The notes under the pieces were generated by a model. That model saw only the letters and a program-made list of their open reading frames with translations. It ran no database searches and was not told the DNA's origin. Below, one piece after another: positions 13,402 through 44,639 of a DNA stretch of 64,000 nucleotides. The first letter of the stretch is position 1; the number at the start of each line of letters is the position of its first letter. Source of the stretch: Pseudomonadota bacterium. GTDB taxonomy: Bacteria; Pseudomonadota; Gammaproteobacteria; Burkholderiales; UBA9220. A program made the translations under genes and the position numbers. Location of the stretch: contig JAJZVC010000010.1 of NCBI GenBank assembly GCA_021845865.1, forward strand, positions 840 to 64,839, read 5' to 3'.

Positions 13402-14589
13402 ATGGTCACCCGAACCCAGCGCCGCGCCCGTCTTGCCGCCCTCCTCGCGGCGTTTCCCCTGGCTTCCTGCAGCGTCGGCCAGGTGGTGACCGTCGCCCGC
13501 AGCGGCAGCCCCGAGCAGGCCCTGGCCAACCTGGCGCGGCAGCGGGTGCAGTCCTACGAAACCAACCCCTTGCTGCTGGTGCGCGACGCCGAGCGCGTCA
13601 AGCAGGCTTTCGACCGTCTCGTGGCCGTGCTGCAAGGCAAGGCCGGCAAGCAATGGGGCCAGCGGGACGTGGCCTTGCCGAGCCGCAAGCAGTACGTCAA
13701 ATACACCCAGAACTACCTCAGCCGGGCGGTGGTGGATTTCGACCGCGGCACGGTGACGGTGGAGACGGTGGACCAGGCCGACCCGGACAAGAGCTTGACC
13801 AACGCCATCGTCACCACCCTCCTCACCCCCGGCGACCCCCGGGCGGTGGATATGTATTCCGACAAGACCGTGCGCCTGACGGGCAAGCCCTACCTTTACG
13901 GCCTGGTGGACGACCAGGAGGGCCTGGCCATCGGCACCGTTTACCGGGCCGAGCGCTACGCCCGCTACCTGCTGCAGCGCGACAAGCGCTTCCGCCCCGC
14001 CCAGGACGGCAGCGGCAAGCGGGTGGCCTACGTCCAGTTCGCCATGGTGCCCGACCACGTCAACCTCAGCGCCCGGCGCTACGCCCGCTGGGTGGACGAG
14101 AACGCCCGCCGCTTCGGCGTCAGCAAGAGCCTGGTCTACGGCATCATGGAAACGGAAAGCGCCTTCAACCCCTTCGCCGTCAGCGCGGCGCCGGCCTACG
14201 GCCTGATGCAGCTGGTGCCCACCACCGGCGGGCGCGACGCCTACCGCAAGGTGAAGGGGGCGGACGTCGTTCCCAGCAGCGGCTACCTGTTCGACCCCGC
14301 CAACAACATTGAGCTCGGCACCGCCTATCTCGCCATCCTGGGCGGCGATTACCTCGATGGCGTGCGCGACCCCCTCAGCCGCGAGTATTGCGTCATCGCC
14401 GCCTACAACGGCGGCACGGGCAACGTCCTGGCCACCTTCTCCCGGGACCGGGAAGAGGCCCTGCGCATCATCAACCGCCTGCCGCCGGGGGAGGTCTACC
14501 AGCGGCTGCGGACCGAGCACCCCCGGGCGGAAACGCGGCGCTACCTGGACAAGGTGCTGGGGGCGCGCAAGGACTTCGTGAATACCTAG
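13402..14589 (+). CDS. mltC: Membrane-bound lytic murein transglycosylase (MltC-like lipoprotein)
   Basis: Lipobox FPLASC; SLT catalytic block LVYGIMETESAFNPFAVSAAPAYGLMQLVPTTGGRDAY. Confidence 0.8.
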   Translation: MVTRTQRRARLAALLAAFPLASCSVGQVVTVARSGSPEQALANLARQRVQSYETNPLLLVRDAERVKQAFDRLVAVLQGKAGKQWGQRDVALPSRKQYVKYTQNYLSRAVVDFDRGTVTVETVDQADPDKSLTNAIVTTLLTPGDPRAVDMYSDKTVRLTGKPYLYGLVDDQEGLAIGTVYRAERYARYLLQRDKRFRPAQDGSGKRVAYVQFAMVPDHVNLSARRYARWVDENARRFGVSKSLVYGIMETESAFNPFAVSAAPAYGLMQLVPTTGGRDAYRKVKGADVVPSSGYLFDPANNIELGTAYLAILGGDYLDGVRDPLSREYCVIAAYNGGTGNVLATFSRDREEALRIINRLPPGEVYQRLRTEHPRAETRRYLDKVLGARKDFVNT

Positions 14590-14746
14590 AGCAGGCCGCT
14601 GAAAAACGTCGCGAGGACGGCCAGAGGCAAGGCGTGCGGCGCGCAGCGACCGAGACACATCAATTGGATAGGCGAGGGAGCGAGCACCGCGCAACGCCGC
14701 GGATGGCCTGCCGCAGCAGGTTTTCAGCGGCCTGCTAGAGCAGGCC
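14586..14746. repeat. 149-bp-period direct repeat CTAGAGCAGGCC flanking a 16-bp perfect inverted repeat (small insertion-like element)
   Basis: CTAGAGCAGGCC at 14586-14597 and 14735-14746; AGCAGGCCGCTGAAAA (14590-14605) is the exact reverse complement of TTTTCAGCGGCCTGCT (14721-14736); mltC stop TAG and radC stop CTA each sit in one repeat copy. Confidence 0.85.
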
Positions 14747-15409
14747 CCGTTCGGCGAAGGAGTAAGCGCTGCCGCCGCCGACGATGAAATGGTCGAGGAC
14801 GTTCACTTCCACCAGGGCCAGGGCCTGTTTCAGGGCGTCGGTAAGGTGCCGGTCGGCGCCGCTGGGCTCGGCCACGCCCGACGGGTGGTTGTGGGCGAAG
14901 ATCACGCCCGCCGCGTTGTGGTGCAGGGCCCGCTTGACCGCTTCCCGCGGGTGGACGCTGGTCTGGGTGAGGGAGCCGGCGAACAGCTCCTCCTCGGCGA
15001 GGATGCGGTTCTGGGCGTCGAGAAAGAGGGCGAGGAAAACCTCCCGGGGCCGGTGTTCCAGCTTCAGCCGCAGGTAGTCCCTCACCGCCCGGGGCGAGGC
15101 AAGGGTATCGCCCTGGCGCAGCTCCTCGGCCAGGGCGCGGCGCGCCATTTCCACCACGGCCTGGAGCTGGGCGTACTTGGCCGCCCCCATCCCGGGCACC
15201 GCCGAGAAGGCCCGCAGATCGGCGGCGAAGAGCGCGTTGAGGCTGCCGAAGCGGGCGAGCAGCTCCCGCGCCAGGTCCACCGCGCTTTTCCCCGTCACCC
15301 CCGTGCGCAGGAAGATGGCCAGCAGTTCCGCGTCGGACAGGGCGGCGCAGCCCCTGGCGAGGAGTTTTTCCCGGGGACGCTCGTTTTCGGGCCAGTCGGT
15401 GATCGCCAT
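14735..15409 (-). CDS. radC: RadC-family JAB-domain protein
   Basis: 224 aa, ...[28 protein letters not shown]...[10 protein letters not shown] (JAMM motif); AAGGAA 6 nt before ATG. Confidence 0.9.
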
Positions 15410-15431
15410 GAGATTCCTTTGAAGCGGGCAC

Positions 15432-16049
15432 CTAGCAGCTCGGGCAGTAGTCGCTCTGCATGCGCACGATGCCCTGGGCCACGAGGGGCAGGCGCTTATT
15501 GTCGTAGCAGGTCTTTTCCAGCCCCGTGGCGCCGCTACTGACCAGGGCGACGATGGTGCGGTTGATGAAGGGGACCTGCAAGGGGTAGCAGTAGGTGACC
15601 TTGATCTTCAGGATATTGGCATCCTGGATTGTTATGCCTCCCGGTCCCACTTCCTTGGAATAGGCCAGATTGCCGTTGGGTATCCTGTTGTTCCAGTGAT
15701 GCAGGGCATCGGCGGTGGGGTTGACGACGTCGATGCGGGAGTAGGTATCCACTTCCTGTTTGGCGATGTCGAAGCCGCCAATGACCTGGCTGTTGCTTGT
15801 GCCGTAGGTGAAGAGGGGGCGCAGACCGTTGGCCAGTCCCAGTTTCATGGCGTCCATCTTGCCCTGGTTGAGAGCGCCGGCTCGGGCGGCCTCAAAAGCG
15901 GCTAGATTGAGCGACCCTTTGGCGTAGTAGAGGAGGCCGAACTGGATGGCGCCGAGGAGGAGCAAGAGGAGCACGGGCAGGATGACGATGAATTCGCTCA
16001 TGCTCTGGCCGCGCTGGCGCGACGGGAGGTGAAGCCAGTCAGTGCTCAC
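15432..16049 (-). CDS. TadE-like pseudopilin
   Basis: [23 protein letters not shown] = prepilin-type G/xxxxEF motif plus hydrophobic helix; motif lies upstream of the first ATG (16001), so GTG 16047-16049 (overlapping the upstream stop) is the likely start. Confidence 0.75.
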
Positions 16050-16716
16050 TGCGGTTTTCGATTTCCAGGCGAAGCAGGGGGAGGGGTATCCAGCCGGTAT
16101 GGCCCTCCCGGTCGCGTACCTCGGCATGCCCCTCCTCCAGCTTCAACACTTCCAAGGGCGTGTCGGCATCGAGTGTGGCCACTTTGCCGTGGCTGACGCC
16201 GCGTCCCTCGCGCAGGTTAACACGTCCCAAGGTATGGGCAATAAGAGTTGGTGCCGCAGGGCCGGGCGGGCAGGTGGATGGCTTGGGCTCGGGTTGTGGC
16301 GTGTCGCCCAGGGCGATTTCCAGGGACTGCAGGAGGTGGGGGGTGGGTAATTTCTCGCCCGAGGCGCCGAAGCGCTCTGCTTCGGTGAGAGCCGCCATGG
16401 CTTGACGCACCCGCACCACGGCGAGGTTGTGCCAAGCCTTGGCGAAGTCGGGTTGGTGCGTCAGCAGGGTTTGGTAGCTGGCTACCGCCTCGTCGAGGCG
16501 ACCCAGTCGGGCCTGGGTGTTGCCTAGGCGAAAGAGAATCTCCACGTTGGAGGGCATCCGTTCGGCGAGCTGATTGTAGCGTTGCAGGGAGTCTTCCCAG
16601 TGGCCCGCATTGTAGGCCTGGGCGGCCTGCTCAACTTGATCCACCAGGTCGTTGTCCTCCCCGTGAGCAACAATGGGGAGCAAGAGGAGGAGGGCACACA
16701 GGAGACGCTTGGTCAT
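16039..16716 (-). CDS. Secreted TPR protein with C-terminal SH3b-like domain (TadD-position)
   Basis: Signal peptide MTKRLLCALLLLLPIVAHG; TPR-like repeats (AYNAGHWEDSLQRYNQL..., LGRLDEAVASYQTLL...); C-terminus GRVNLREGRGVSHGKVATLDADTPLEVLKLEEGHAEV...GWIP is SH3b-like. Confidence 0.7.
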   Translation of the reverse strand: MTKRLLCALLLLLPIVAHGEDNDLVDQVEQAAQAYNAGHWEDSLQRYNQLAERMPSNVEILFRLGNTQARLGRLDEAVASYQTLLTHQPDFAKAWHNLAVVRVRQAMAALTEAERFGASGEKLPTPHLLQSLEIALGDTPQPEPKPSTCPPGPAAPTLIAHTLGRVNLREGRGVSHGKVATLDADTPLEVLKLEEGHAEVRDREGHTGWIPLPLLRLEIENRSEH

Positions 16717-17072
16717 TTTCCCCCCCCGTCGTCTTGCCAGTGGGTCGCCATCCCGGTTCTCAGCCCCAGCCGGGCCATTTCCCCTGACGCCAGTTCCAGC
16801 ACTGCCCGAGCACCGGGGCAGGCGGCGAAGCGCCAGGGGGCCAGGCGTTCCACCACCCTGAGGATGCGCCCGCCGTGGTCGAGGAAGGCCGCGTCAATGG
16901 GATAAGCCATGGCCCAGGTGTGGATACCCGAGCAGGGTTCGATGAGGAGGGCTTCACCACTTTTCGGCTCGGGGCGCGCAAGAAGGCCACGGGCCCGTTC
17001 AAGGGGGCCTTCCGTACGGCGCGCACGGGGGATCAGGACCGTGCCGTTGGCTAGGATGCGCCCCGCCTTCAC
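16713..17072 (-). CDS. DUF192-like protein
   Basis: Last 119 codons of track ORF 16713..17870; GTG 17070-17072 overlaps tadC stop (GTGA); ...ERARGLLARPEPKSGEALLIEPCSGIHTWAMAYPIDAAFLD... resembles DUF192 (COG1430). Confidence 0.6.
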   Translation of the reverse strand: MKAGRILANGTVLIPRARRTEGPLERARGLLARPEPKSGEALLIEPCSGIHTWAMAYPIDAAFLDHGGRILRVVERLAPWRFAACPGARAVLELASGEMARLGLRTGMATHWQDDGGGK

Positions 17073-17956
17073 AGCGTTCCCTGAGCCATGAACTTCATCA
17101 CCAGGGGGAAGGCAAGGACGATGAAGGTGACGGGGAAGATGAACAATACCAGGGGTCCGACCAGCTTGACCGGGGCTTCCATGGCGATTTTTTCCACCAA
17201 CTGGAAGCGTTCGGTACGGCGCTGGATGGCCATGGACTTGAGCACCGGCCCCAGGCTGCCGCCGCTGCGTTCCGCCTGGATGATGGCGCCGACGAAGGAG
17301 TAAACCGGGTCCAGATCGGCCCGGTCGGCCATGCGACGCAGAGCGTCGGCCCGGGATAGGCCGGCGCGGATTTCCCTCAGTACGCGGGAGAACTCGAAGC
17401 GCAGGGGGCCGGGTGGTCCTTTCTCCACGACCTGGGCGATGGCGCCGGACAGGTTGAGGCCGGCTTCCACGGCCATGGAGATGAAGTCGAGGAAAACCGG
17501 CAGCATCTTGAGGATGGCCTTGCGGCGGCGCAGACGGGTATCGCGCACCCACAGCAGGGGATAGAAGAATCCTCCCACGGGCAGGAGGGCCAGCCACAAG
17601 GCAACGTGAATAGGGGCCACGGGCAGTAGGAGAAGCCCGAGCAGGAAGGCAATGCTGGCGGACGTGGCTTGGAGGCCGAAGAACTGTTGCGGCAGGAGGA
17701 CGTAGTCCAATCCGGCTCCCTGTAGGGTTTTCTGGATGGACTGGAGGCGGGTCACGGGCAGGTGGTTGCCGAGGAAATAGCCGTAAAAGCGCACAAAGGG
17801 CCAGAGCAGGACGACGGGTCGGGGCGGTCGGTCCAGGTTCTCGCGCTGGTCGGCGGGGAGTTTGTGCCACAAGGTCGCCACGGTGAAGAAAATGAGCGCC
17901 ACGGCCAAGCCGAAACCGAGGGCGATAAGGAACTGGAAGAGGGTGGCGTCAGACAT
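17069..17956 (-). CDS. tadC: Tad pilus inner-membrane platform protein TadC (GspF-like)
   Basis: 295 aa from ATG 17954-17956 (overlaps tadB stop); T2SS-F-type domain, N- and C-terminal TM helices. Confidence 0.85.
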   Translation of the reverse strand: MSDATLFQFLIALGFGLAVALIFFTVATLWHKLPADQRENLDRPPRPVVLLWPFVRFYGYFLGNHLPVTRLQSIQKTLQGAGLDYVLLPQQFFGLQATSASIAFLLGLLLLPVAPIHVALWLALLPVGGFFYPLLWVRDTRLRRRKAILKMLPVFLDFISMAVEAGLNLSGAIAQVVEKGPPGPLRFEFSRVLREIRAGLSRADALRRMADRADLDPVYSFVGAIIQAERSGGSLGPVLKSMAIQRRTERFQLVEKIAMEAPVKLVGPLVLFIFPVTFIVLAFPLVMKFMAQGTL

Positions 17957-18797
17957 CGATGGTGGTGATCTTGCTGATGGCAAAGTAGCCCAGGGACTCC
18001 ATGACCACGATCACGCCCAGTACCGCCCAGCCGGTGTGGGTGGTGAAGAGGAGGCTCATGGCGTCGGGTTCCATGAAATAAAGAATGACGGCGAGAACCA
18101 CGGGCAGGAAGGTCATGACCATGCCCTGGAGCTTGCCTTGGGCGGTGAGGGAATGGATTTTCCCCTCCATCATGGCCTTGTTGCGCAGGATGTCGGCCTG
18201 GGTCTCCAGAATGTTCGCCAGGTTGCCGCCTACTTCGCGGGAGATGCGCATCCCTGCCGTCACCAGCTGGAAGTCGGGGTGGGAAATACGCGTGGCCATG
18301 TGTTCCAGGGCGGTATCGAAATCCAGGCCCATGCGCTGCTCCCTCTGGAACAGCTCGAACTCCTGGCTCAGGGGGGGGCGCTGCTCGTCCACTAGCTTTT
18401 CCAGGGACACGGCCATGCTGCTTCCCGCCCGCAGGCTGCTGGAAAGGGCCATGAGGGCGTCAGGAAGCTGGGTGATGAATTTCTTGAGGCGGGCTTGCTG
18501 CAGGCGGCGGTAGACCAAGCGCGGCAGGAACGCCACCAGGGCCATTGCCATGGCAGCCAGGGGCCAGGAACCCGTCAGGACCTTAATTGTCAGTGGAACA
18601 AGGGCCAGCAGTGCGAGGTTATAGTAAAAGATGCGCTGGGAGTCCACGAAAAGAAACATCTCTCCCAGGGTGTTGCTGGCCGTGTGGGTGAAGGCCTCCC
18701 GGTAGCGGCGCAGAAAGGCCGAGCCTCCCAGCAGGGCCACTGTCCCGATGAGGGTGCCGCCGACGAAGGCGAGCAGGATGATAGCCAGCTTGGTCAC
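17949..18797 (-). CDS. tadB: Tad pilus inner-membrane platform protein TadB (GspF-like)
   Basis: 282 codons from GTG 18795-18797 (GTGA overlap with ATPase stop): VTKLAIILLAFVGG...; T2SS-F-type domain. Confidence 0.85.
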   Translation of the reverse strand: MTKLAIILLAFVGGTLIGTVALLGGSAFLRRYREAFTHTASNTLGEMFLFVDSQRIFYYNLALLALVPLTIKVLTGSWPLAAMAMALVAFLPRLVYRRLQQARLKKFITQLPDALMALSSSLRAGSSMAVSLEKLVDEQRPPLSQEFELFQREQRMGLDFDTALEHMATRISHPDFQLVTAGMRISREVGGNLANILETQADILRNKAMMEGKIHSLTAQGKLQGMVMTFLPVVLAVILYFMEPDAMSLLFTTHTGWAVLGVIVVMESLGYFAISKITTIDV

Positions 18798-20467
18798 GCT
18801 GCGTTGCCCTCCGCGCGGAAGATGCTGAGGTCGGTCTGGATGCCTCGCTGGGAGAGGGTTTCGTAGAACTCGGGAATGGCGCCGGTGGCGACGAATTCTC
18901 CCTGCACCTTGCCGTCGGGACCATATCCCCGTTGGCGGAAGAGGAAGATGTCCTGGAGTTGGATGGTGCCGCTCTCGGTGCCGGTGATCTCGCTGATGTA
19001 GGTGATCTTGCGGCTGCCGCAGGCGAAGCGCGTCTGCTGCACGATGAGGTGTATGCCGGAGGCGATCTGCTCGCGGATGGCGGAGATGGGCATCTCCATG
19101 CCCGCCATCAGCACCATCACCTCGATGCGGGACAGGGCATCCCGGGGCGAGTTGGCGTGGACCGTGGTAAGGGAGCCGTCGTGGCCGGTGTTCATGGCCT
19201 GAAGCATGTCCAGGGCTTCGCCGCCGCGGCATTCGCCCACCACGATGCGGTCGGGGCGCATGCGCAGGCTGTTCTTCACCAGGTCGCGGATGGCGACCTC
19301 GCCCTTGCCCTCGGCGTTGGCGGGACGGGCCTCGAGGGAAACCAGGTTGGGCTGGTTGAGCTGCAGTTCCGCCGCGTCCTCGATGGTGACGATGCGCTCG
19401 GTGTGGGGGATGAAATTGGACAGCACGTTGAGGAAAGTGGTCTTGCCCGAGCCCGTGCCGCCGGAGACCACGATGCTGCGCCGCTGTTCCACGGCGACCT
19501 TGAGGAAACTCACCATGTTCTCGCTGATGGAGCCGAATTGCACCAGTTCCTCGATTTCCAGCCGGTGGCGGAAAAATTTCCGGATGGTAACGCTGGGCCC
19601 CTTCAAGGCCAGGGGCGGAATGATGGCATTGACCCGGGAACCGTCCTGCAAGCGGGCGTCCACCATGGGGGAGCTCTCGTCGATGCGCCGCCCCAGGGGG
19701 GAAACGATGCGTTCGATGACGGACATCACGGCTTCGTCGCTGGTGAAGGTGACGGGGGTGCGCTCCAGACGGCCTTTGCGTTCGACGAAGATCTCTTCGT
19801 GGCTGTTGACCATGATCTCGCTCACGCTGTCATCCGCCAGAAGGGGTTCCAGGGGGCCCAGGCCCACCGCTTCACTGAGTACCGACTGGGCGAGAAGACC
19901 GCGGTCCACGTCGGCTGGGAGTGTCATGCCAGCGAGGATGTCGTCGATCATCTGGCGGGTGAGGGTGCGTAGCTCATTCTCGCCCATGCGGCTCACGTCC
20001 ACCCGCTTGAGGTCCATCTGCTGGAGCAGGGCTTGGTGGACTTTCTGCTGCCACTGACCCAGTTCGGCCAGTTGGCTGGCATTGTAGGCGCCCTCATGTG
20101 GCGCTTCGGCCAGGGGCGGTGCAGTAGGGGCGGAAGGCGCGGTGACAGGTGCAGTTGCCTTCTGAGCGGCAGGGTCCTGGCCGTTGTCCAGATAGATGCG
20201 GTAACCCCCGGCTTGGATTTCATCGGCGGGGCCGAGGGGGCCTTGGCGGGAGATGCGCTCGCCGTTGACGAAGGTGCCGTCCACGGAGCCTGCGTCCTCC
20301 ACGAAGAGTTGGCCGTTTTCCTCGCTCACGGTGAAGTGGGTCAGCGCCGCCTTCTGGCCGAAGAGGGTGACGAGGTTGTCGGGGCCGCTGCCAGCAGTGA
20401 AGCGGTTGCCCGCGCAGGAAACGGTGCTGGCATCGCCCCGGGGCGGGACCACGCGAATCTTGATCAT
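18794..20467 (-). CDS. tadA: CpaF/TadA secretion ATPase with N-terminal FHA domain
   Basis: N-terminus has FHA signature (GSGPDNLVTL...THFTV...LFVEDAGSVDGTFVNGERI); C-terminal CpaF core with Walker A GGTGSGKTT. Confidence 0.9.
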   Translation of the reverse strand: MIKIRVVPPRGDASTVSCAGNRFTAGSGPDNLVTLFGQKAALTHFTVSEENGQLFVEDAGSVDGTFVNGERISRQGPLGPADEIQAGGYRIYLDNGQDPAAQKATAPVTAPSAPTAPPLAEAPHEGAYNASQLAELGQWQQKVHQALLQQMDLKRVDVSRMGENELRTLTRQMIDDILAGMTLPADVDRGLLAQSVLSEAVGLGPLEPLLADDSVSEIMVNSHEEIFVERKGRLERTPVTFTSDEAVMSVIERIVSPLGRRIDESSPMVDARLQDGSRVNAIIPPLALKGPSVTIRKFFRHRLEIEELVQFGSISENMVSFLKVAVEQRRSIVVSGGTGSGKTTFLNVLSNFIPHTERIVTIEDAAELQLNQPNLVSLEARPANAEGKGEVAIRDLVKNSLRMRPDRIVVGECRGGEALDMLQAMNTGHDGSLTTVHANSPRDALSRIEVMVLMAGMEMPISAIREQIASGIHLIVQQTRFACGSRKITYISEITGTESGTIQLQDIFLFRQRGYGPDGKVQGEFVATGAIPEFYETLSQRGIQTDLSIFRAEGNAA

Positions 20468-20472
20468 GGGGT

Positions 20473-21804
20473 TTACTCCGCCAGGTTGTCCTTGAGCAGC
20501 GCGTCGCGCTTCTGCTCCACCAGGGCCGCCCGGGCGTCCGCCTGGGGGTCGGTGGTGTTGCCCGCCTCGACGACGTGGGGTTCGACGAACACCACCAGTT
20601 CGGTGCGGTTGTTGCGGAATTCGCTGGAGCTGAATAGTGCCCCCAGCACCGGGATATCACCCAGGAAGGGGAGCTTGTTGATGTTGTTGGAGATGCTGGC
20701 GTCGATGAGGCCGGAGAGGGCGATGGGTTCGCCATCCTTGAGGTTGACCTCCGCGCTGGTACGGCGGGTGAGGAAGCCGGGGATACCCTGGACGGTCACC
20801 GAGTTGTCCACCGTGCTGACTTCGGTGTCCACCTTGATGAGGACATTGTTGTTGGCGTCGGTGACGGGTTTGAAGTTCAGCTTGATCCCGTAGTCCTTGA
20901 AGGTGACGTTGCTTTGGCCGGTGGTGTTGGTGGTGGGGATGGGAATCTGTCCACCCGCCAGGAACTCGGCCTGCCCGCCGCTGCGGGTGCTGAGGCGGGG
21001 AGAGGCCAGTTCCACGGCATCCCCGTTGGTTTCCATCAGGTTGAGGATGGAGGTGATATTGGTGCCCCAGCTGAGAAACTGGCGCGGTCCCGTGAGGCCC
21101 GGAACGGTGCTTTGGAAGCGGCCGATGCGCAGACCGAAGTTGGGGCCGGCGATGGCGGTACTGGTTTGGGGGGTGACCCAGTCAAAACCGATGCGCTCCA
21201 GGGCGGTTTTCTTGAACTCCATGATGCGCACATTTAGGAGGACCATCTTCTTCATGGTCATGTCGCTTTCCAGGGTGAGGTCCACCACCCGGGGGAAAGA
21301 CTTGGTAATGGAGGTGAGTTGGGGTTTCACCTTGGGGTCCACGGCGCCTTCCAGGAACACCTGGCCCCCCACTTGCCGCGCGGTGATGCCGCCGATGGGC
21401 TGGATAAGGGCGCGGATGTCGGACAGGACGCGGGCGGAATCGTTCTCCGAAACGTGAACGGCGAGCTGCATCTCCCGTCCGTCCTTGAGCCAGATGTGCA
21501 CGGTGGTATCGCCGGCGGCTTCCGCCATGAGGAGAAGCTGGTCGTTGGGCAGAATGGTGGAACTCAGGAGCTTGGCGTTGCCCATGGCGACCTTGGAAAC
21601 GGGGCGGATGGGCAGGACCCTCACTTCGCCCGCATACAGCTCAAGACGTTCCATGAGAATGGGCGGCTTCCTGGAAATTTCGGTCTTGGCAGGGACCTTG
21701 AGCGACTCTTTGGGTGTGTCCTTGGCGGGTTCAGCCAAGGCGGAGGCTGCGGCGAGAGCCAGGCAGGCGGCCAGAATCCGTGCCGGGGAGAGTCTTATCT
21801 TCAT
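20473..21804 (-). CDS. cpaC: Tad pilus secretin CpaC/RcpA
   Basis: Signal peptide, BON-like N-domain and secretin C-domain (...LPFLGDIPVLGALFSSSEFRNNRTELVVFVEPHVV). Confidence 0.9.
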   Translation of the reverse strand: MKIRLSPARILAACLALAAASALAEPAKDTPKESLKVPAKTEISRKPPILMERLELYAGEVRVLPIRPVSKVAMGNAKLLSSTILPNDQLLLMAEAAGDTTVHIWLKDGREMQLAVHVSENDSARVLSDIRALIQPIGGITARQVGGQVFLEGAVDPKVKPQLTSITKSFPRVVDLTLESDMTMKKMVLLNVRIMEFKKTALERIGFDWVTPQTSTAIAGPNFGLRIGRFQSTVPGLTGPRQFLSWGTNITSILNLMETNGDAVELASPRLSTRSGGQAEFLAGGQIPIPTTNTTGQSNVTFKDYGIKLNFKPVTDANNNVLIKVDTEVSTVDNSVTVQGIPGFLTRRTSAEVNLKDGEPIALSGLIDASISNNINKLPFLGDIPVLGALFSSSEFRNNRTELVVFVEPHVVEAGNTTDPQADARAALVEQKRDALLKDNLAE

Positions 21805-22775
21805 GGTTTGTCCTGTTTCTTGGTGTCGTTGCCGCTGGCTGCCGGGGAGGCGGATGCGGGTGGAGTGGTGGTGTGTGCCTTGGCCGGGGCGGGCGAGGAA
21901 ACGGCCGGCAGGTTCATGCTGATGGGGACCTGGATGGTGGTCGCCACGCCGGGTTGGCTGCCGGGCATGATGTAGCTCACGGTGTCGCCCAGGTTGAGGC
22001 TGTGGGTGAACAGTTGCTCCATTTGCAGGGGGGCGAGGGCGGCAACGTCGGCGTCATCCCCCCGGCCGCGCAGGATGGCGGTGAGGGAGCCCGTATCCCG
22101 GGCCAGTACCACGCGCTCTGCATCTTCGGGGGTCACGTCCAGGGTCACGGTGGCATAGCGCAGGCCGAATTTGTCACTGCCCTGTTGTACGCTCGCGGCA
22201 GCCGAGTACTGGCTGCCCGTGGCGATCACCTTCACGTTTTGCAGGAGGGGCAGCACCATGCTGCCGCTGCTTCCCCGGCTGCTCAGCATCAGGTCGATAC
22301 GGTCTCCGGGCATGAGCAGGCCGCTGAAGGAACTGACCTCGTCCACGTTGATGGTGATGGCCCGGCGGCCGTCCTTCAATTTGTCCGCCAAACCCGCCGC
22401 GCCGCCATCGGCGAGGTAGCTGAGAAGCAGTGGCTGCCCCTGCTCTAGGGGCTTGATAAGGACCTGGCCCTGGATCTTGTCGAAGTTGCCCGGCAGGATC
22501 GTCTCCGGATAGACATAATCTTTGGGTACCTGGCGAACGGCCATGTTGTTGTCGCCGACAGTGGTTCCGGCGGCCAGGGCGAACTTGGCCACCACCACGG
22601 GGACGAGGTCCTTTGTCTGTTCCGTGTGGACCTGCTCCCGCAGCTTGGTCTCTTCCTGCTCCAGATAGACATAGGCAAGGATACTGGCCAGTACCCCCAG
22701 CACTCCTCCAGCCACGGCAAGTACGAGGGTGCGGCGGGTGCGCATCAGTTCGGCAAAATCGGGGCGTGTGAGCAT
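21801..22775 (-). CDS. cpaB: Flp pilus assembly protein CpaB/RcpC
   Basis: 324 aa from ATG 22773-22775; N-terminal TM anchor then SAF/RcpC-type domains (VVVAKFALAAGTTV...GRRAITINVDEVSSFSGLLMPGDRIDL). Confidence 0.85.
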   Translation of the reverse strand: MLTRPDFAELMRTRRTLVLAVAGGVLGVLASILAYVYLEQEETKLREQVHTEQTKDLVPVVVAKFALAAGTTVGDNNMAVRQVPKDYVYPETILPGNFDKIQGQVLIKPLEQGQPLLLSYLADGGAAGLADKLKDGRRAITINVDEVSSFSGLLMPGDRIDLMLSSRGSSGSMVLPLLQNVKVIATGSQYSAAASVQQGSDKFGLRYATVTLDVTPEDAERVVLARDTGSLTAILRGRGDDADVAALAPLQMEQLFTHSLNLGDTVSYIMPGSQPGVATTIQVPISMNLPAVSSPAPAKAHTTTPPASASPAASGNDTKKQDKP

Positions 22776-22803
22776 GGTTCCCTGTCGCTTTTTTGAGTTT
22801 GAG

Positions 22804-23004
22804 TTATTTATTTGATGGCAATTCCGGTAACGCCATGGACGTGACATAACCCTGGTAATTCTGCTGGATGACGACGATCAGCTTGTTGATATAGGGCTGC
22901 CCCGTTTTGTCCTTCGCCAGCAGCGCCATGGCCACAAACATCACCACGATGACGTACTCGGTGTAAGATTGCCCGGAATTCCGCTTTATGTCCATCTTAA
23001 TCAT
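22804..23004 (-). CDS. Flp-like prepilin (second, divergent copy)
   Basis: 66 aa; KRNSGQSYTEYVIVVMFVAMALLA = G/xxxxEY Flp motif plus hydrophobic helix; ATGA overlap with upstream gene; about 49 percent G+C by hand count over 22801-23004. Confidence 0.6.
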   Translation of the reverse strand: MIKMDIKRNSGQSYTEYVIVVMFVAMALLAKDKTGQPYINKLIVVIQQNYQGYVTSMALPELPSNK

Positions 23005-23663
23005 CGCGTTACAATAGTCATGCCAATGGCGGTGCGGCTTCCCGAGGGGGCGAAGGCCAGGGAGAGTTCCTGGTTGTCCTTGCGCAGCACCATCTGGCGC
23101 CCGCCGTTGCGGGCCTTGCCTTCATTCACCAGGGTCCAGCCGTCCTTGCCCATGGATTCACGGTAATAGGAGGCGCTGGCGTCCACGGAGAGGGGGCAGA
23201 AGGCCACCAGGGTGCGGCCCTGGCGGTCTCCGTCGTTGCTCCGGATGTCGTTCACCACCTCGCTCCCCGGCGGGAGGGGCGCTCCCTGGCCCAAGAGGGG
23301 GCGGGGCGACATTTTGAGGGGGCGCTGGGAGAGGTAGCCTTCCGCCGTGTTCCCGGCGGCCGGGCGAACCTGTACCACGAGGAAGAAGTCCCCCTGGGCG
23401 CGGGAGATGTTGCGCCAGGGCCCCACGGTGTTCTCCACGTAGTTCTTCCAGCCAGTGTCGGTCCAGCGCTGGCGGTAATAGGCCAGCACCTGGGGGAGGG
23501 AGTTCTTGCTGTGGAAATACTGAATGCGCATGGGGACGCCGTTGTAGACCATGTCCTGGGCCACCCAGGAAACGGTGGATTGGGGTGGCGCTTCCATGGT
23601 CACCCAGGCCCGGGCGGCGGGGGCGGCGAGGAGAAGCAGAGCGGCGAGGAGAAGGGCTCTCAT
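23001..23663 (-). CDS. Secreted protein of unknown function inside the Tad operon
   Basis: 220 aa from ATG 23661-23663: signal peptide MRALLLAALLLLAAPAARA; two halves each with a YYR-x6-GW core. Confidence 0.6.
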   Translation of the reverse strand: MRALLLAALLLLAAPAARAWVTMEAPPQSTVSWVAQDMVYNGVPMRIQYFHSKNSLPQVLAYYRQRWTDTGWKNYVENTVGPWRNISRAQGDFFLVVQVRPAAGNTAEGYLSQRPLKMSPRPLLGQGAPLPPGSEVVNDIRSNDGDRQGRTLVAFCPLSVDASASYYRESMGKDGWTLVNEGKARNGGRQMVLRKDNQELSLAFAPSGSRTAIGMTIVTR

Positions 23664-24511
23664 GGGGCTTGCCGGTCCTTGGGGGCCTGGTCGGGGACGA
23701 TGCGGCCGTAATCCAGTCCCTTGAAGTCGGGGATCACGTCGCTCACGTAGCCCGTGAGCGTGCTGACCCAGCCGGAGAGGACGGTGGTCGGCACGAGATT
23801 GGCCACCTGGCAGAGCTCGGAGTGGGGGTCCTGCCCCGAGGTGCAGTGGTTGCCGCTGCCGGGGCCGGAAACCTGCCAAGCGTCGGTGATGATGACGTTG
23901 GGGCGGGGGATGATGGTGATGGGCGCCACGTAGAGGAGGGGTGGGATCATGCCGCTGCCGCCGGGACTACCTTGTTGGGCCACGTTGACGCTCATCGTGC
24001 TCGAGTACATGCCCTTGATGTTGACTTGGAACTGGCTTTTGTGCACGTCACCGAAGCTCTCGAGCCAGCCCGCGACGGTGTTGAACATGTTCACCAGGAA
24101 GTTGAAGACCGTGTTGTAGATGATCCCCGGCGATGTCTGGCCCTGGCCGCTTTCGGTCTGGGCGGTCACGTTGTCGTAGCTCGCCAGCATGGAGTTTCCA
24201 GAGGGGTCGGTCCACAGGGGATTGTACCGCGCGGGCGGGCCTGAACCGTCGGAGACGCTGAGGGGGGTGCCGGGAGCGGTGAAGATACGGTTGCGCACCT
24301 CGTTCTGCAGCGCCGTATTGCCCTTGGCGTTCGGTGTCCAGACGGTGCGCTCCCAGGCCACGTAGCGGCTGCCCTGGGCCGCGCTGTGGTTGATGTCCAT
24401 GTATTTTCCCAGGAGCGGGATGGCGAGGAAGATGGGGATGAGCACCAGGCAGACCACCAGGAATTCGGCCATGGCCTGCCCGTGCAGGGAAAAGGATGGC
24501 TTACGGTTCAT
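23660..24511 (-). CDS. TadE/TadF-like pseudopilin
   Basis: 283 aa from ATG 24509-24511; SLHGQAMAEFLVVCLVLIPIFL = G/xxxxEF motif plus hydrophobic helix. Confidence 0.7.
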   Translation of the reverse strand: MNRKPSFSLHGQAMAEFLVVCLVLIPIFLAIPLLGKYMDINHSAAQGSRYVAWERTVWTPNAKGNTALQNEVRNRIFTAPGTPLSVSDGSGPPARYNPLWTDPSGNSMLASYDNVTAQTESGQGQTSPGIIYNTVFNFLVNMFNTVAGWLESFGDVHKSQFQVNIKGMYSSTMSVNVAQQGSPGGSGMIPPLLYVAPITIIPRPNVIITDAWQVSGPGSGNHCTSGQDPHSELCQVANLVPTTVLSGWVSTLTGYVSDVIPDFKGLDYGRIVPDQAPKDRQAP

Positions 24512-26144
24512 AGGCGCTGAGTCCACTGGTGTTGGTGGAAGAGGGGGAGGGGTGGGATAGCAGTGACTTCCAGCCGAAGAGGGTTTCGTAGGCCTGGGAG
24601 CGCTCCTGGTCGGTGGTGTCGGCCAGGGTGGCCTCCCAGTAAGGGCTGAAGAGGTTGCTGTACTGCTTGTCGAGGGCGAAGTGCAGCTTGCCCTTGGAGA
24701 TGGCGTAGAGGGCGCTCGCATCGGGGGGCTCCTCAAGCCGCATGTTGTTCAGGCCGAAGGGTCCGAGCCCGTTGGCGGGCGCGCCAAAACCCGCCTGGGC
24801 GGCGGTGCGTGCCTTGGCCATGTCCTTGCTCACCACGATGGTGAGCTGGGGGCCATCGTTGTTTTGGGTGGATGGGTCACCGGGATTGCTGATGCCGTAA
24901 TAGGGCTTGAGGCCGATGGATGAGATGGATGCCTCGCCATACTCGCCCACCGCCATTTCGAATACATCCGCGGTCTCAGAGGGGGCGCCGCCATACGAGG
25001 AGGAATTGTTGTTGCTGTTGTAGATGTCCTCCCCCGGCGTGCCGTCACCGGGAGCATTGGCGTAGGCGGCGCCCCAGCCCAGGGGGACGGTGATGGACGG
25101 GTCGATGTTGAAGGGGAGGATGTTGCAGTAATCCCAGCCGCAGGGGTAGGGGATGCCGTGCCAGTGGCAGAATTGGACGCCGCAGATGACTTTCACCTTG
25201 ACGTGCACGGCGCCGTAGGCCCCCATGGTGTCCGCGGCGGACCAGGAGTACTGCTTGTTGACCTGTTTCAGTTCCGTGCCGCCGCGGCGGTTGACGCTTA
25301 GGTCGGCGCTGGCATCGATCTTCACCGGCAGGGGGATGTCGTTGATGATGTCCTGCGCCCACTTGGGGAGCCAGCTCAGGAGCCAGTCGGTGTTAAACAC
25401 CTCCCCGCCGAGCGTCCATCCACGGTTTTGGGCGAAGCTGTCGTTGGAGGCCCGGGTGACGTCGGCGAAGCGGCTCATTTCCGGCTGGCTGGCGTCGTAG
25501 CGGCTGGTGTATTTCCACCAGGCGCTGGCATCCTTGATGAGGATGCCGAGCCGGTAGAGATCCCCCGGGAGGTCGCTGCCGCTGCTCGGCCATTTCAAGA
25601 GTTTGGCATCCGGGTCGTTGAGGGCCAGTATCCCGGTCTGCACCGTGGAGCCGCTGTAGAGCAGGTTCTGGATGATGGCCTCCCCGTTGCCGTAGTGGAA
25701 CGTCTCTTCCAGGTCGGAGAGAGCACCCATCCAGTATCCCAGCACTTTGATGAGTGCAGGGAGGACGGAATCCACGAACACATCCTCGAAGCCGTTATAG
25801 GCACCGGCGAGGGCGTCGCAGACGGCGTCCAGGAAGGGGATGGGCTCGCACACGGCGGCGAGGTTGTCGATGACCTGGCCGGTGAAGCGGAACCAGGAGG
25901 CGAGGCCCACCATCTGGCTCACGGCGACCTGATTGGCGACCATGGCCCGATTCATGTAGGCGGTGAAGTTGTAATCCCGCGCGGCGATGGTGGCGACACT
26001 GTACGCCGTGGCGTCGGCGGTGTTTTGAAGCTCCATCTTGGAGCGGGTAAGCTGGGCGGTGTTGAAGAGGAGCAGCAATATAATGCCCACCACCATCAGG
26101 AGAATGGTGGCGAAGACCAGGGACTGGCCCCGTTGTCGAATCAC
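24501..26144 (-). CDS. TadG-like pilus-associated protein
   Basis: 547 aa, GTG start; N-terminus IRQRGQSLVFATILLMVVGIILLLLF typical of TadG/TadE-G-like N-terminal domain; large Cys-containing C-terminal region. Confidence 0.7.
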   Translation of the reverse strand: MIRQRGQSLVFATILLMVVGIILLLLFNTAQLTRSKMELQNTADATAYSVATIAARDYNFTAYMNRAMVANQVAVSQMVGLASWFRFTGQVIDNLAAVCEPIPFLDAVCDALAGAYNGFEDVFVDSVLPALIKVLGYWMGALSDLEETFHYGNGEAIIQNLLYSGSTVQTGILALNDPDAKLLKWPSSGSDLPGDLYRLGILIKDASAWWKYTSRYDASQPEMSRFADVTRASNDSFAQNRGWTLGGEVFNTDWLLSWLPKWAQDIINDIPLPVKIDASADLSVNRRGGTELKQVNKQYSWSAADTMGAYGAVHVKVKVICGVQFCHWHGIPYPCGWDYCNILPFNIDPSITVPLGWGAAYANAPGDGTPGEDIYNSNNNSSSYGGAPSETADVFEMAVGEYGEASISSIGLKPYYGISNPGDPSTQNNDGPQLTIVVSKDMAKARTAAQAGFGAPANGLGPFGLNNMRLEEPPDASALYAISKGKLHFALDKQYSNLFSPYWEATLADTTDQERSQAYETLFGWKSLLSHPSPSSTNTSGLSAYEP

Positions 26145-26173
26145 CGGAACCGTCCGGTCTGTTCCGCCCAGGC

Positions 26174-26197
26174 GGGGCCCCGGTCGGGGCCCCGGTC
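26174..26197 (-). repeat. Tandem 12-mer GGGGCCCCGGTC x2 (GC palindromes) between pilin and tadG-like genes
   Basis: Identical 12-mers at 26174-26185 and 26186-26197; each contains palindrome GGGGCCCC, allowing an 8-bp GC hairpin with 4-nt loop in the transcript. Confidence 0.8.
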
Positions 26198-26201
26198 GGA
26201 C

Positions 26202-26480
26202 TTAGTTACCGCCCTGAGGGTTGCTGTAGGAGCCCAGACCCTTGTCTTTGTTGGCCTCGGTCTGACCTTGGTTGGCGGCTTCCTTCGCCTGCTGCTGGGC
26301 CGTCTGGCTGCTCTGGCCGGCCATTTCCTGGGACATGCCCGCCACGTCTTCGCGCACGGTCTTGCCGAAGTACATGTAAACGCCGATGGCGGCGACGGCC
26401 ACCAGGATGACGATGATGATGTATTCGGTCATGCCTTGGCCGAGTTGACGGCGGCGCGCAGGGAATCGGGTGGCTTTCAT
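26202..26480 (-). CDS. flp: Flp-family type IVc prepilin with extended Gln-rich C-terminal tail
   Basis: 92 aa; RRRQLGQGMTEYIIIVILVAVAAIGVY = G/xxxxEY motif plus helix; AAGAGGAGA SD upstream; AT-rich leader region 26481-26591. Confidence 0.75.
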   Translation of the reverse strand: MKATRFPARRRQLGQGMTEYIIIVILVAVAAIGVYMYFGKTVREDVAGMSQEMAGQSSQTAQQQAKEAANQGQTEANKDKGLGSYSNPQGGN

Positions 26481-26591
26481 GGTGTTCTCCTCTTTGGTTG
26501 TTAGTTAGGGGTCTACTCTTGAATACTTTTAGACTTTGTAAAAAATTCTAACATAACGATAACACGGGAGGAATAACGTTTTTTCGGGCGT

Positions 26592-28142
26592 TTACGGCGC
26601 AAGGCCGAAAAACTGGCGCACGCGGCGCAGGATGTCCGTGTGCTCCTGGGCCACCTGTTTGGCCTGGGCGGCGGCGTCCATTTCTTCCAGGCGGTGCTCC
26701 CGTTCCAGGGCGCGGGTGGCGAGAACCTTGGAGATTTCCTCGGCCAGGGACGGGCGGGAATGGAGAATGCCCTCGAAGGAGGCCTTGTCCAGGCGGTAGC
26801 ATTCCACGTTGCTGCGGGCGACGACGGTGGAGGCCCGGGGGCTGCCGGTCATCAGGCCCATTTCGCCGAAGAAGCTGCCTTCCCGCAGGGTGGATATCCA
26901 GCGTTTTTCGCCTTCTGGCGTTTCCAGGAAGACGTCGACCTGGCCCTCGGTGAGGATGTACAGCCAGTGGGCCACCGCCCCTTGCCGGGTGAGTATCTCG
27001 CCCTGGGCGAACGGGGCGTACGCCAGCCTTTCGGCGATGGTGCCCAGTTCCTCGCGGCTGAGGGTGTTGAACAGCTCCACTTTTTCCAGCGCCGCCAGGC
27101 GGCGGGCCAGTTCCCGCTGGCGCACCGCCAGTTCGTGCTTTTCGCTTTCCTTGACGATGTGGCGGCTCTCCTCGGGAGTGGCGAAGCGGATGCCGGCCCG
27201 CTGGAAGGCGGTGAAGAGGTGGGCGCGGACGATGGAGTCGGTGGGGTCGTCCAGGGCCAGTTCGGTGAGCCAGTAGCGCAAGGCGTAGCGGGCGTAGTTC
27301 TTGTCGAATTCCATCAGCACGCAATTGGGGAGGGGATCGCGGGCCGCGTTGGGGATGTCCGCGCCGCGCACGGCTTCCTCGGCGGTCTGGATGACCCGGA
27401 AGGGGGGCTCCTTGAGGTCCACGTTGAACCATATCCAGCGCCGCAGCTGCACCGGCTGTCCGCTACGCTGGCCGAGGACGCTGAATTTGTTCTTCATCAA
27501 CTGGCTGTTGGGGATGACCACCGTTTCCCAGTTACGGGTCTCCACCACCGTGGAGCGCCAGCGGATGTCCACCACCCGGCCCACCACGTCGTCGGCCTTG
27601 ATCCAGTCCCCCACCTCCACCGACTTGTCCAGTTGCAGGGCGATGCCGCCGAGGATGTTGCCCAGGGTGTCCTGCATGGAGAAGGCCACCACCGCCGTCA
27701 CCACCGCCGAGGTGGTGACGATGCCCGACAGATCCATGCCGGCGTAGCGCAGCCGCATCATGCCCCAGACGAAATAGGCGCCGAAGGTGACGATGTCCTC
27801 CGAGATGCGCGGGGGGTGGACGCCCAGGCGGGAAAGGATGAGGCGGAAGAGGAAGATGGCCCAGAGGCGGATCAGGGCCACCCCCTGGATGAGGAAAAAA
27901 ACCTCCCGCAGGGTGGCGGCCATGGCCGGCAGTTCCAGCTGGTGGAACAGGGTGCTGACCAGGGCGCCGGCCAGGCTGGTGGCGAGGAACAGCAGGGAGT
28001 TGCGGATGTCCCGCCGTTCCGTGGGCAGAAGGCGGTAGGAGAGAGCGGTGATGGCCAGGGTGGCCACCAGCAGGACGGGGAAGCTGTCCCAGCCGAAAAG
28101 ACGCATCACGGCATGCCACAGGGCGATCGGGTCGGCGGTCAT
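26592..28142 (-). CDS. MscS-family mechanosensitive channel fused to a cyclic-nucleotide-binding domain
   Basis: 516 aa; TM region plus MscS beta-domain (VGDWIKADDVVGRVVDIRWRSTVVETRNWETVVIPNS) and C-terminal cNMP-binding fold (FFGEMGLMTGSPRASTVVA). Confidence 0.9.
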   Translation of the reverse strand: MTADPIALWHAVMRLFGWDSFPVLLVATLAITALSYRLLPTERRDIRNSLLFLATSLAGALVSTLFHQLELPAMAATLREVFFLIQGVALIRLWAIFLFRLILSRLGVHPPRISEDIVTFGAYFVWGMMRLRYAGMDLSGIVTTSAVVTAVVAFSMQDTLGNILGGIALQLDKSVEVGDWIKADDVVGRVVDIRWRSTVVETRNWETVVIPNSQLMKNKFSVLGQRSGQPVQLRRWIWFNVDLKEPPFRVIQTAEEAVRGADIPNAARDPLPNCVLMEFDKNYARYALRYWLTELALDDPTDSIVRAHLFTAFQRAGIRFATPEESRHIVKESEKHELAVRQRELARRLAALEKVELFNTLSREELGTIAERLAYAPFAQGEILTRQGAVAHWLYILTEGQVDVFLETPEGEKRWISTLREGSFFGEMGLMTGSPRASTVVARSNVECYRLDKASFEGILHSRPSLAEEISKVLATRALEREHRLEEMDAAAQAKQVAQEHTDILRRVRQFFGLAP

Positions 28143-38569: not shown

Positions 38570-38606
38570 ACGGGTGCTTGCGGCACGAGGAAAGAAAGGC
38601 GGAGCC

Positions 38607-43129: not shown

Positions 43130-43145
43130 GCGGGAGGAAAAGCAG

Positions 43146-44570: not shown

Positions 44571-44597
44571 TTCGCAAGTGGATTGCTCCCTTCGTAC

Positions 44598-44630
44598 AAA
44601 AACCGCAGCGCAATGCTGCGGTTTTTATTT
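44598..44630 (+). terminator. Rho-independent terminator
   Basis: AAAAACCGCAGC-GCAAT-GCTGCGGTTTTT then ATTT, 28 nt after the stop at 44570; shows that track start 44583 for the next ORF is spurious. Confidence 0.85.
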
Positions 44631-44639
44631 GAGCCGGGC

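Follow-up and report, generated by a model that had tools for sequence, protein, structure and literature searches.

A recurrent Tad-like operon with an FHA-fused motor ATPase and no tadZ gene in the locus

Introduction

Tad pili are usually taught as one architecture arranged around a TadZ hub, in which tadZ normally directly precedes the motor gene or its product forms the N-terminal part of a fused motor protein. On contig JAJZVC010000010.1 of GenBank assembly GCA_021845865.1, from a Pseudomonadota bacterium of the burkholderial lineage UBA9220, a stretch of 64,000 nucleotides (positions 840 to 64,839 of the contig, hereafter the window) carries a string of 13 genes resembling a Tad, or type IVc, pilus locus, in which a preliminary description recognised neither tadZ nor tadV, the gene of the prepilin peptidase. 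Does such a locus encode a machine that works without TadZ, a relic of one that had it, or something other than a pilus? Based on its comparison with related loci, we favour, at a probability of about 0.72, the reading that these genes would be a working operon, coupled at translation, and that its machine would belong to a branch of the Tad/type IVc filaments that does without TadZ.

Results

The operon consists of 13 intact open reading frames (ORFs), numbered here g1 to g13, which run on the minus strand from 26480 to 15432 and encode a Tad/type IVc-like machine that is complete apart from TadZ and the prepilin peptidase. All 13 are full length when set against their homologues, and nine of the junctions between them are overlaps. 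The ATGA overlaps at 23001-23004, 23660-23663, 21801-21804 and 16713-16716 and the GTGA overlaps at 18794-18797 and 17069-17072 lie exactly where they had been reported; the remaining six junctions consist of overlaps of 11, 8 and 11 nucleotides (nt) or gaps of 5, 28 and 57 nt.

The missing parts were searched for with Pfam, NCBIfam and local hidden Markov models (HMMs) of TadZ and TadV, built from loci retrieved with CpaF, with seeds validated in Pfam (REC plus AAA_31/ParA, and Peptidase_A24, respectively). Among the 13 products there was no match to ParA, CbiA or AAA_31 and no polytopic A24 peptidase, and thus no hidden homologue of TadZ or TadV. Over the whole window the TadV model gave zero matches, and those of the TadZ model were limited to the receiver domains of ordinary response regulators. 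Screening of the window by motif and hydropathy, read together with the Pfam annotations of the neighbouring genes, found no ORF with a KGGxGx[ST] ParA/MinD motif or of Peptidase_A24 type. HMM, motif and Pfam checks therefore agree that tadZ and tadV are absent from the window, as first noted.

Searched with the CpaF protein, JGI metagenomes and a GTDB set with a single genome for each species gave 160 loci, in which gene order was determined by tblastn with the 13 products. The shared order is Flp, TadG-like, g3, g4, (small pilin), CpaB, CpaC, FHA-CpaF, TadB, TadC, DUF192, (TPR), TadE. This order of 12-13 genes recurs in more than 25 loci, spread over several orders of Beta- and Gammaproteobacteria and including a Moraxella bovis plasmid; it was found in Chromatiales, Oleiphilus, Piscinibacter, Thauera, two Acidithiobacillus species, Quisquiliibacterium, Halofilum, Polaromonas and Granulosicoccus, as well as in several metagenome-assembled genomes (MAGs), in metagenome contigs and in seven further contigs reached through a protein database. 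Different classes of Proteobacteria share genes g2 to g4 and the FHA fusion. In the plasmid collection a single plasmid, the 130-kb one of M. bovis, encodes a full-length FHA-CpaF. The best 120 CpaF relatives in the database all combine FHA with T2SSE, and the family of the periplasmic protein g4 comprises 1691 clusters at 50% identity, 987 of those at E<=1e-10; both results argue that the architecture is common in nature.

TadZ was counted in the 119 loci with at least 1.5 kb of sequence upstream of cpaF. It was present in 0/29 loci with an FHA-fused motor versus 68/90 other loci (Fisher p=4e-14). Where non-FHA loci have tadZ, the gene lies immediately upstream of cpaF or, in Bdellovibrionota loci, is fused to the N-terminus of the motor, which agrees with the published TadZA protein. 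The FHA domain thus holds the position that TadZ has elsewhere. Peptidase_A24 within 10 kb was found in none of the syntenic proteobacterial loci versus 26/39 non-FHA loci. Those FHA-motor loci that do have Peptidase_A24 belong to Myxococcota, Lentisphaerota and two unclassified metagenome contigs (L096, L100). In the seven extra contigs, neither PF01478 nor ParA-type families were listed. The conserved order, the mutual exclusion of FHA and TadZ, the lack of a hidden TadZ or TadV and the intactness of the genes all bear out the proposal of a distinct Tad-like subtype instead of a textbook Flp locus.

In the alignment of FHA-motor loci, the residues of the phosphothreonine (pThr) pocket are replaced in the window FHA domain: GS stands for GR, ALTH for SxxH and DG for NG (SVDG at the S-T-N-G position). 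In most syntenic relatives these positions are occupied by K or S, by A or G, and by variable residues; the copies of Myxococcota, Halofilum and several others retain the canonical GR, SxxH and S-T-N-G residues, with GK for GR in Halofilum. The window domain also matches the YscD cytoplasmic FHA-like domain in Pfam. Given the degenerate pocket, with which the YscD-like match is consistent, the window FHA domain probably acts as a phospho-independent interaction or docking module. In the Halofilum MAG (L023), the region 13784-20092 downstream of the FHA-motor operon encodes an extra FHA protein, a Ser/Thr kinase, an 857-amino-acid (aa) TadE-like protein and a trypsin-PDZ protease; by analogy, this arrangement resembles the signalling context of Kil, a Tad-like apparatus of Myxococcus xanthus that is compared below.

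The core of the machine comprises several of the parts named in the TXSScan/TFF-SF definition of Tad pili. The motor ATPase g8 (18794-20467, minus strand, as are all the operon genes) is an FHA-fused CpaF/TadA of 'class III' architecture (FHA E=8e-9, T2SSE E=6e-65), which matches the solved Caulobacter crescentus CpaF structures at E=1e-117 to 3e-118 (9e24 at E=3e-118). The platform is represented by g9 (TadB, 17949-18797) and g10 (TadC, 17069-17956), with one T2SSF domain each. The CpaC/RcpA secretin g7 (20473-21804) has T2SS-T3SS_pil_N and Secretin domains, and the predicted periplasmic alignment protein CpaB/RcpC, g6 (21801-22775), has SAF and RcpC domains (TIGR03177 E=1e-44). TadE and TadG membership is provided by g13 and g2. 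Pfam and NCBIfam upheld the original assignments of CpaB/RcpC, the secretin, FHA-CpaF, TadB, TadC, the DUF192 protein and the TPR-SH3b protein.

Three further genes code for predicted accessory proteins. The product of g4 (23001-23663) is a periplasmic protein with a Sec signal that serves as a marker of the subtype; it is PF27226/AF_1845-like, although a direct Pfam scan gave no match and PF27226 is a precomputed annotation on g4 and its relatives. Its AlphaFold model (predicted local distance difference test score, pLDDT, 91.6) has two tandem alpha/beta domains. A function could not be read from this fold, as there was no PDB match at E<1e-3 and the similarities to PsbP and DcrB were weak. 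The product of g12 (16039-16716) has a Sec signal followed by TPR and SH3_3 domains and is a candidate TadD/Tgl-like assembly factor: NCBIfam shows weak similarity to the TPR of the Tgl pilotin, but the signal is of Sec instead of lipoprotein type and an SH3b domain is added. Among the operon products no RcpB candidate was recognised, and no RcpB-specific search was made.

The DUF192 protein g11 (16713-17072; PF02643 E=1e-14, with a match to PDB 3m7a) is without a signal peptide. The preliminary description counted it among the unusual parts; a DUF192 gene, however, is a common downstream neighbour of tadC, shared by Tad loci of Firmicutes, Chloroflexota, Acidobacteriota and Proteobacteria (among them L031, L033, L041, L042, L047, L051, L052, L066, L075 and L079), and many of the Firmicutes, Chloroflexota and Acidobacteriota loci with this arrangement also have TadV. 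Its co-occurrence with Peptidase_A24 in many loci removes it as a stand-in prepilin peptidase and marks it as a common accessory, not a replacement part. From this distribution DUF192 looks like a widespread and overlooked Tad accessory protein; we found no literature linking it to Tad/Flp pili.

Five genes encode predicted pilins or pseudopilins. The major Flp-like prepilin, g1 (26202-26480), has 92 aa with a leader ending in RRQLG/QGMTEY and a mature product of about 77 aa; homologues with a near-identical G/QGMTEYIIIVALIAVAAIG core are the first gene of every syntenic locus, and a close one is named 'UPF0333 family' in IMG. The second small pilin, g5 (22804-23004), has 66 aa, of which 51 would remain after cleavage at SG/QSYTEY, and small pilins of about 51 mature aa occupy its position in five related loci (L005, L007, L008, L009, L064). 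The TadG-like protein g2 (24501-26144, 547 aa), a large minor pilin or tip protein, has RG/QSLVF and a transmembrane segment at its N-terminus and matches PF13400 Tad at E=7e-7; it is kept at position 2 of the syntenic loci, and no relative with a solved structure was found. The pseudopilin g3 (23660-24511), with the leader HG/QAMAEF and a C-terminal domain of about 250 aa, is conserved across the syntenic loci. The TadE pseudopilin g13 (15432-16049; leader ending in QRG/QSMSEF, PF07811 E=4e-14) is the final gene in every one of them. The labels first given to these proteins thus hold for the TadG-like g2 and for TadE g13; the TadE match of g3 is weak (E=0.11), and g1 and g5 are Flp-like only by their size and leader motif.

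The most likely starts of g2 and g13 are GTG codons, at 26144 and 16049, respectively. The latter gives g13 a 16-aa leader as in homologues; ATG 16127 could also serve. In public annotations, g13 begins at ATG 16001, and g2 does so at ATG 26096 on some contigs, so that the prepilin leader and cleavage site are lost, and the upstream GTGs restore leaders like those of the homologues.

All four G/xxxxE[YF] leaders and the RGQSLVF of the TadG-like protein were present as first described: G/QGMTEY in g1, G/QSYTEY in g5, G/QAMAEF in g3 and G/QSMSEF in g13. The leader is no special feature of this locus, however, since Gln at +1 is also the commonest type among TadZ/TadV-bearing loci of the comparison set (89/119), a majority that likewise rules it out as a clade-specific signature of the archaeal Epd/EppA kind (PMC4371748). 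It follows that the leader would be an ordinary TadV-type substrate and that the peptidase is most simply supplied in trans.

The g8 sequence is present on seven contigs from ENA, NCBI and Logan assemblies, and the operon occupies the same site in five independent assemblies, in identical or near-identical copies. Six upstream genes (g1 to g5 and the neighbouring gene for an MscS-type channel) were compared between strains and contained zero internal stop codons, with ratios of nonsynonymous to synonymous substitution (dN/dS) of 0.1-0.5. Against positions 22804-26480 of the window and their flank, the contigs L180 and L181 had CoaBC 100% and MscS 96-99% identical; in L180, the most divergent strain, identity to the window fell to 88% for g1, 71% for g2, 76% for g3 and 86% for g4. 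In these strain comparisons, synonymous divergence (dS) was 0.23-0.69 for the pilus genes versus 0.16 for MscS, which suggests recombination or diversifying selection on the exposed parts of the filament. Judged by these comparisons, purifying selection acts on the locus, which is not decaying, and the pattern is that of functional genes whose predicted surface-exposed parts diversify fast.

Genes for toxins or large exoproteins stand beside 11/32 FHA-type loci with adequate flanks, mostly directly after the last gene. In Piscinibacter (L007) and Thauera (L010), an 1850-aa DUF6531-RHS-core protein with a C-terminal Tle1-like lipase is encoded right after tadE on the same strand, and RHS proteins with other C-termini occupy the same position and strand on the M. 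bovis plasmid (L087) and in L091 and L094. Each of the five operon-linked RHS proteins has a plain Sec signal peptide, and Pfam scans of three of them (L007, L010, L087) detected neither PAAR nor VgrG. On the M. bovis plasmid the operon is surrounded by four RHS genes, and in Acidithiobacillus ferrianus the gene right after the operon encodes a pesticin-like lysozyme with a Sec signal. In L168/L169, L172 and L173, TpsB and a giant protein with a two-partner secretion (TPS) domain follow tadE; the tpsB start overlaps the tadE stop in L168/L169 and L172, and three small genes intervene in L173. A TPS protein is encoded just upstream of flp in L174, and L175 encodes a giant protein with an Imm17 immunity gene behind it. 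Four loci (L015, L026, L090 and L102) have large ORFs on the downstream side that gave no Pfam match, appeared to be wrong-frame ORFs of GC-rich DNA and were not counted.

Of the FHA loci, 5/25 have RHS genes, versus 0/68 of the non-FHA loci whose downstream flank measures at least 5 kb (p=0.001), and phmmer with the Rhs and TpsB proteins gave no convincing match in non-FHA loci (one marginal, L107, E=3e-7). The closest long-contig relative of the window, L176, has no toxin or exoprotein neighbour. The 130-kb M. bovis plasmid (NZ_CP087831.1; L087, L177, L178) also carries a Dot/Icm-type type IV secretion system, a lytic transglycosylase and a 3500-aa LPD1-domain protein beside the Tad-like operon, and one of its proteins, annotated as DUF2235, matches the Rhs proteins of L007 and L010, the Tle1-like domain being a candidate only. 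A prepilin peptidase is not annotated in the parts of the plasmid that were read.

With canonical Tad/Cpa loci (Aggregatibacter tad, Caulobacter cpa, Pseudomonas rcp/tad) the window shares the motor, TadB and TadC, CpaB/RcpC, the CpaC/RcpA secretin, a short pilin with a G/xxxxE[YF] leader, TadE-type pseudopilins and a TadG-type protein. It differs from them by the lack in the locus of TadZ/CpaE, TadV/CpaA and a lipoprotein TadD, and by the additional conserved genes g3, g4 and g12. Type II secretion systems (T2SS) belong to the type IV filament superfamily and expel Sec-exported periplasmic cargo by means of a secretin and a pseudopilus, the basis of any analogy to export. Unlike them, the window has no GspE-type ATPase (GspE models scored far below their cut-offs), no GspD with N0-N3, no GspC/L/M and no N-methyl (PF07963) pseudopilins. 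In a betaproteobacterial MAG (L170/L171), N-methyl pilin genes (1957-2424) and genes for an MshE-like ATPase and a T2SSF protein (18038-21686) flank the operon, so that two different type IV filament systems stand adjacent there.

The M. xanthus Kil system is a Tad-like, contact-dependent apparatus for killing prey, the motor of which, KilF, is FHA-fused and the single ATPase (PMC8460266). Like the window, it combines this motor with a secretin, CpaB, TadB/C and several pilins; unlike the window, it is encoded in two clusters, with its own prepilin peptidase KilA, several further FHA proteins and no TadG (PMC8460266). We read Kil as being without TadZ from its single ATPase, TadZ being unnamed in that report (PMC8460266). 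In the window a single cluster was found, with neither a kinase nor a peptidase nor a second FHA protein. Myxococcota loci, taken as Kil-type (KilF itself being outside the comparison), keep in their FHA domains the pThr residues that the window has lost. Their FHA-CpaF proteins are about 50% identical over the full length, and in a neighbour-joining (NJ) tree on 354 ATPase-core columns the FHA motors group together, with the window in the proteobacterial group and the Myxococcota loci nearby, a weakly supported placement.

FHA-CpaF proteins have been described as 'class III' CpaF orthologues (FHA, intrinsically disordered region, CpaF; e.g., Achromobacter xylosoxidans E3HIW0) that predominate in Betaproteobacteria, with a domain architecture identical to that of g8; as far as its available text goes, that study classes the ATPase alone, without operon, TadZ loss or toxin linkage (PMC12019362). 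As to whether this architecture already belongs to a characterised subtype, the motor does, being catalogued as class III and FHA-fused in Kil; the operon-level variant differs from Kil in the points listed above. The Tad system of Bdellovibrio bacteriovorus has, like the window, an accessory module at the motor N-terminus and no tadV in its tad loci, and it serves cell-cell contact in prey attachment; unlike the window, its module is TadZ, in a TadZA fusion, and its genes are dispersed over several loci (bioRxiv 10.64898/2026.07.08.737194).

The operon is flanked by coaBC and a gene for a channel of the MscS type gated by cyclic nucleotide monophosphates (cNMP) on one side and by radC on the other. 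The region 26481-26591 (minus strand) is AT-rich and, from reading of the sequence, contains a putative operon promoter, with TGTTAGAAT as an extended -10-like element, and AAGAGGAG as a strong Shine-Dalgarno sequence; a scan for consensus sigma-70 sites in this region was empty, as was that for a sigma-54 site upstream of g1. No Rfam family and no convincing terminator were found. The 57-nt spacer after the pilin gene (26145-26201, minus strand) has two tandem CCGACCGGGGCCCC repeats with GGGGCCCC palindromes, has no T-run and was not scored as a terminator; it may form an mRNA hairpin and be an attenuator or RNA-stability element that sets the ratio of pilin to machinery. The gene of the cNMP-binding MscS-type channel (26592-28142, minus strand) precedes the pilin gene on that strand at a distance of 111 nt, and stand-alone cNMP-binding or Crp-like genes flank two related operons (L173, 15555-16492; L176, 1650-2345). 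These neighbours may reflect cyclic-nucleotide regulation or coincidence.

The rest of the window carries housekeeping and energy genes, including KorAB, an Isp-type NiFe hydrogenase, carAB, dapB, fur and greA. An exact copy of the GreA sequence is deposited under an uncultured Sulfuricellaceae bacterium (Betaproteobacteria), a label shared by database cluster-mates of DapB and dUTPase with at least 90% identity. In the hydrogenase cluster (36821-41641, plus strand), genes for a 219-aa membrane protein without a Pfam match and for a CCG/Fe-S protein stand between the small and large subunit genes, which we take to be the Isp-type arrangement. A trio at 41795-46718 (plus strand), read by eye from the translations, encodes two TPR proteins, one with a signal peptide and resembling an outer-membrane beta-barrel, the other resembling O-GlcNAc-transferase, and between them a secreted, FecR-domain-like protein whose long tail is rich in Gly, Ser and Thr; a GGDEF gene follows the trio.

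Discussion

The locus would, by homology, build a filament in the manner of other Tad machines. The hexameric FHA-CpaF motor (g8), seated on the TadB/TadC platform (g9, g10), would polymerise the 77-aa mature pilin g1, with g2 (TadG-like), g3, g5 and g13 (TadE) as minor pilins, and the filament would exit via the CpaB ring (g6) and the CpaC secretin (g7). Cleavage of the prepilins after the conserved Gly would fall to a peptidase of the TadV/PilD family whose gene lies elsewhere in the genome; related loci that encode Peptidase_A24 use the same G/Q....E[YF] leader. The FHA domain at the motor N-terminus would replace TadZ as a docking or regulatory module, and g4, g11 and g12 may be accessory assembly factors. 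The output would be a surface filament for contact with surfaces or other cells; as genes for contact-dependent toxins recur beside this machine in the wider family, cell-cell contact appears a likelier role than plain adhesion to a substrate. The product of the operon is thus probably a contact filament that needs no TadZ and is processed by a peptidase from another locus.

Several points weigh against this interpretation. The absence of TadZ and the peptidase is established within the 64-kb window; the peptidase in trans is an assumption, and a tadZ elsewhere in the genome is conceivable. The case for substitution of TadZ by FHA consists of their anticorrelation and the position of the domain. 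The small pilins g1 and g5 match neither Flp_Fap nor Class_III_signal in Pfam even at E<=10, there is no Rhs, TPS or other toxin gene within the 64 kb, and the machine is known here from its genes, the host being an uncultured MAG. NJ bootstrap values are 22-50% for the deep groupings and 22-35% for the syntenic clade, so that the subtype is defined by gene content and order and not by a robust phylogeny; the same values leave the relationship of the clade to Kil as a lead, not a result.

The simplest alternative is an ordinary adhesive Flp/Tad pilus whose tadZ and tadV lie elsewhere in the genome, its odd parts being lineage-specific decoration. All core Tad parts are present and the leader motif is of the common type. 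Furthermore, tadV is modelled as a 'loner' gene, being encoded apart in some genomes (PMC6668835), and PilD, which processes Flp in Bdellovibrio, can replace it (bioRxiv 10.64898/2026.07.08.737194). Displacement in one genome, however, would not lead one to expect the lack of tadZ from every FHA-motor locus counted. Against this alternative, which we consider very unlikely, stands also the conservation of g2 to g4 and the FHA fusion across classes. That the locus is a decaying remnant of a Tad island after loss of tadZ and tadV would account for the two core genes of canonical Tad that are missing, but it is effectively refuted by the 13 full-length ORFs with their overlapping junctions, by the retention of the same architecture in dozens of distant genomes, and by the five assemblies, in which the six upstream genes have no stops and evolve under constraint.

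A more serious contender is an export or delivery device like Kil or a T2SS, in which a short pseudopilus would push Sec-exported Rhs or pesticin-like cargo through the CpaC secretin, or the TadG-like tip would present cargo for contact killing. The Sec-signal RHS genes right downstream of tadE in five loci, with their varying toxin domains, speak for it, as do the four RHS genes on the M. bovis plasmid, the pesticin-like gene of A. ferrianus and the confinement of RHS to FHA loci. An FHA motor without TadZ is also common to the Kil killing machine (PMC8460266), and the Myxococcota loci adjoin the clade in the NJ tree. Yet the window has no such cargo gene, and the TpsA of four relatives has its own TpsB exporter, which argues for functional synergy through contact instead of export through the Tad secretin. 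In addition, g12 is missing from the Rhs-linked loci, which are hence a sub-variant, the tree that places Kil near the clade is weakly supported, a link between Rhs and Tad was not found in the literature, and toxin and pilus genes may merely share mobile islands. We therefore regard an export device as possible but improbable. Just as tentative is the broader idea that the FHA-motor, TadZ-less clade is the proteobacterial counterpart of Kil, which would deliver or export Sec-dependent toxins (Rhs cages, pesticin-like lysozymes) or supply the contact for TpsBA toxins of the contact-dependent inhibition (CDI) type, the window copy being a member without cargo or with cargo encoded in trans. If true, it would reveal a route for Rhs toxins across the diderm outer membrane other than the type VI secretion system and would name candidate cargo types for Kil-like killing.

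The FHA-motor architecture and one distant relative, Kil, were already known; added here are the strict complementarity of FHA and TadZ and the recurrent coupling to Sec-dependent Rhs toxins and TPS systems, two results that jointly lend plausibility to a role in contact or antagonism. A TadZ-independent contact filament would mean that the single architecture of Tad pili has a large environmental clade beside it, without TadZ and with FHA on the motor instead, whose g4 marker comprises about 1000-1700 clusters at 50% identity. As this clade holds both phospho-competent and degenerate versions of the FHA domain, it offers a natural experiment on the positioning and activation of Tad machines. 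The Rhs genes, the TpsBA pairs and the gene of a lysozyme-like toxin that follow the pilus operon directly provide a testable link of Tad-like filaments to interbacterial antagonism, which bears on the cargo of Kil-like machines and on the exit of Sec-dependent Rhs proteins from diderm cells, and the operon has cultured carriers in Moraxella bovis, Acidithiobacillus ferrianus and isolates of Thauera and Piscinibacter.

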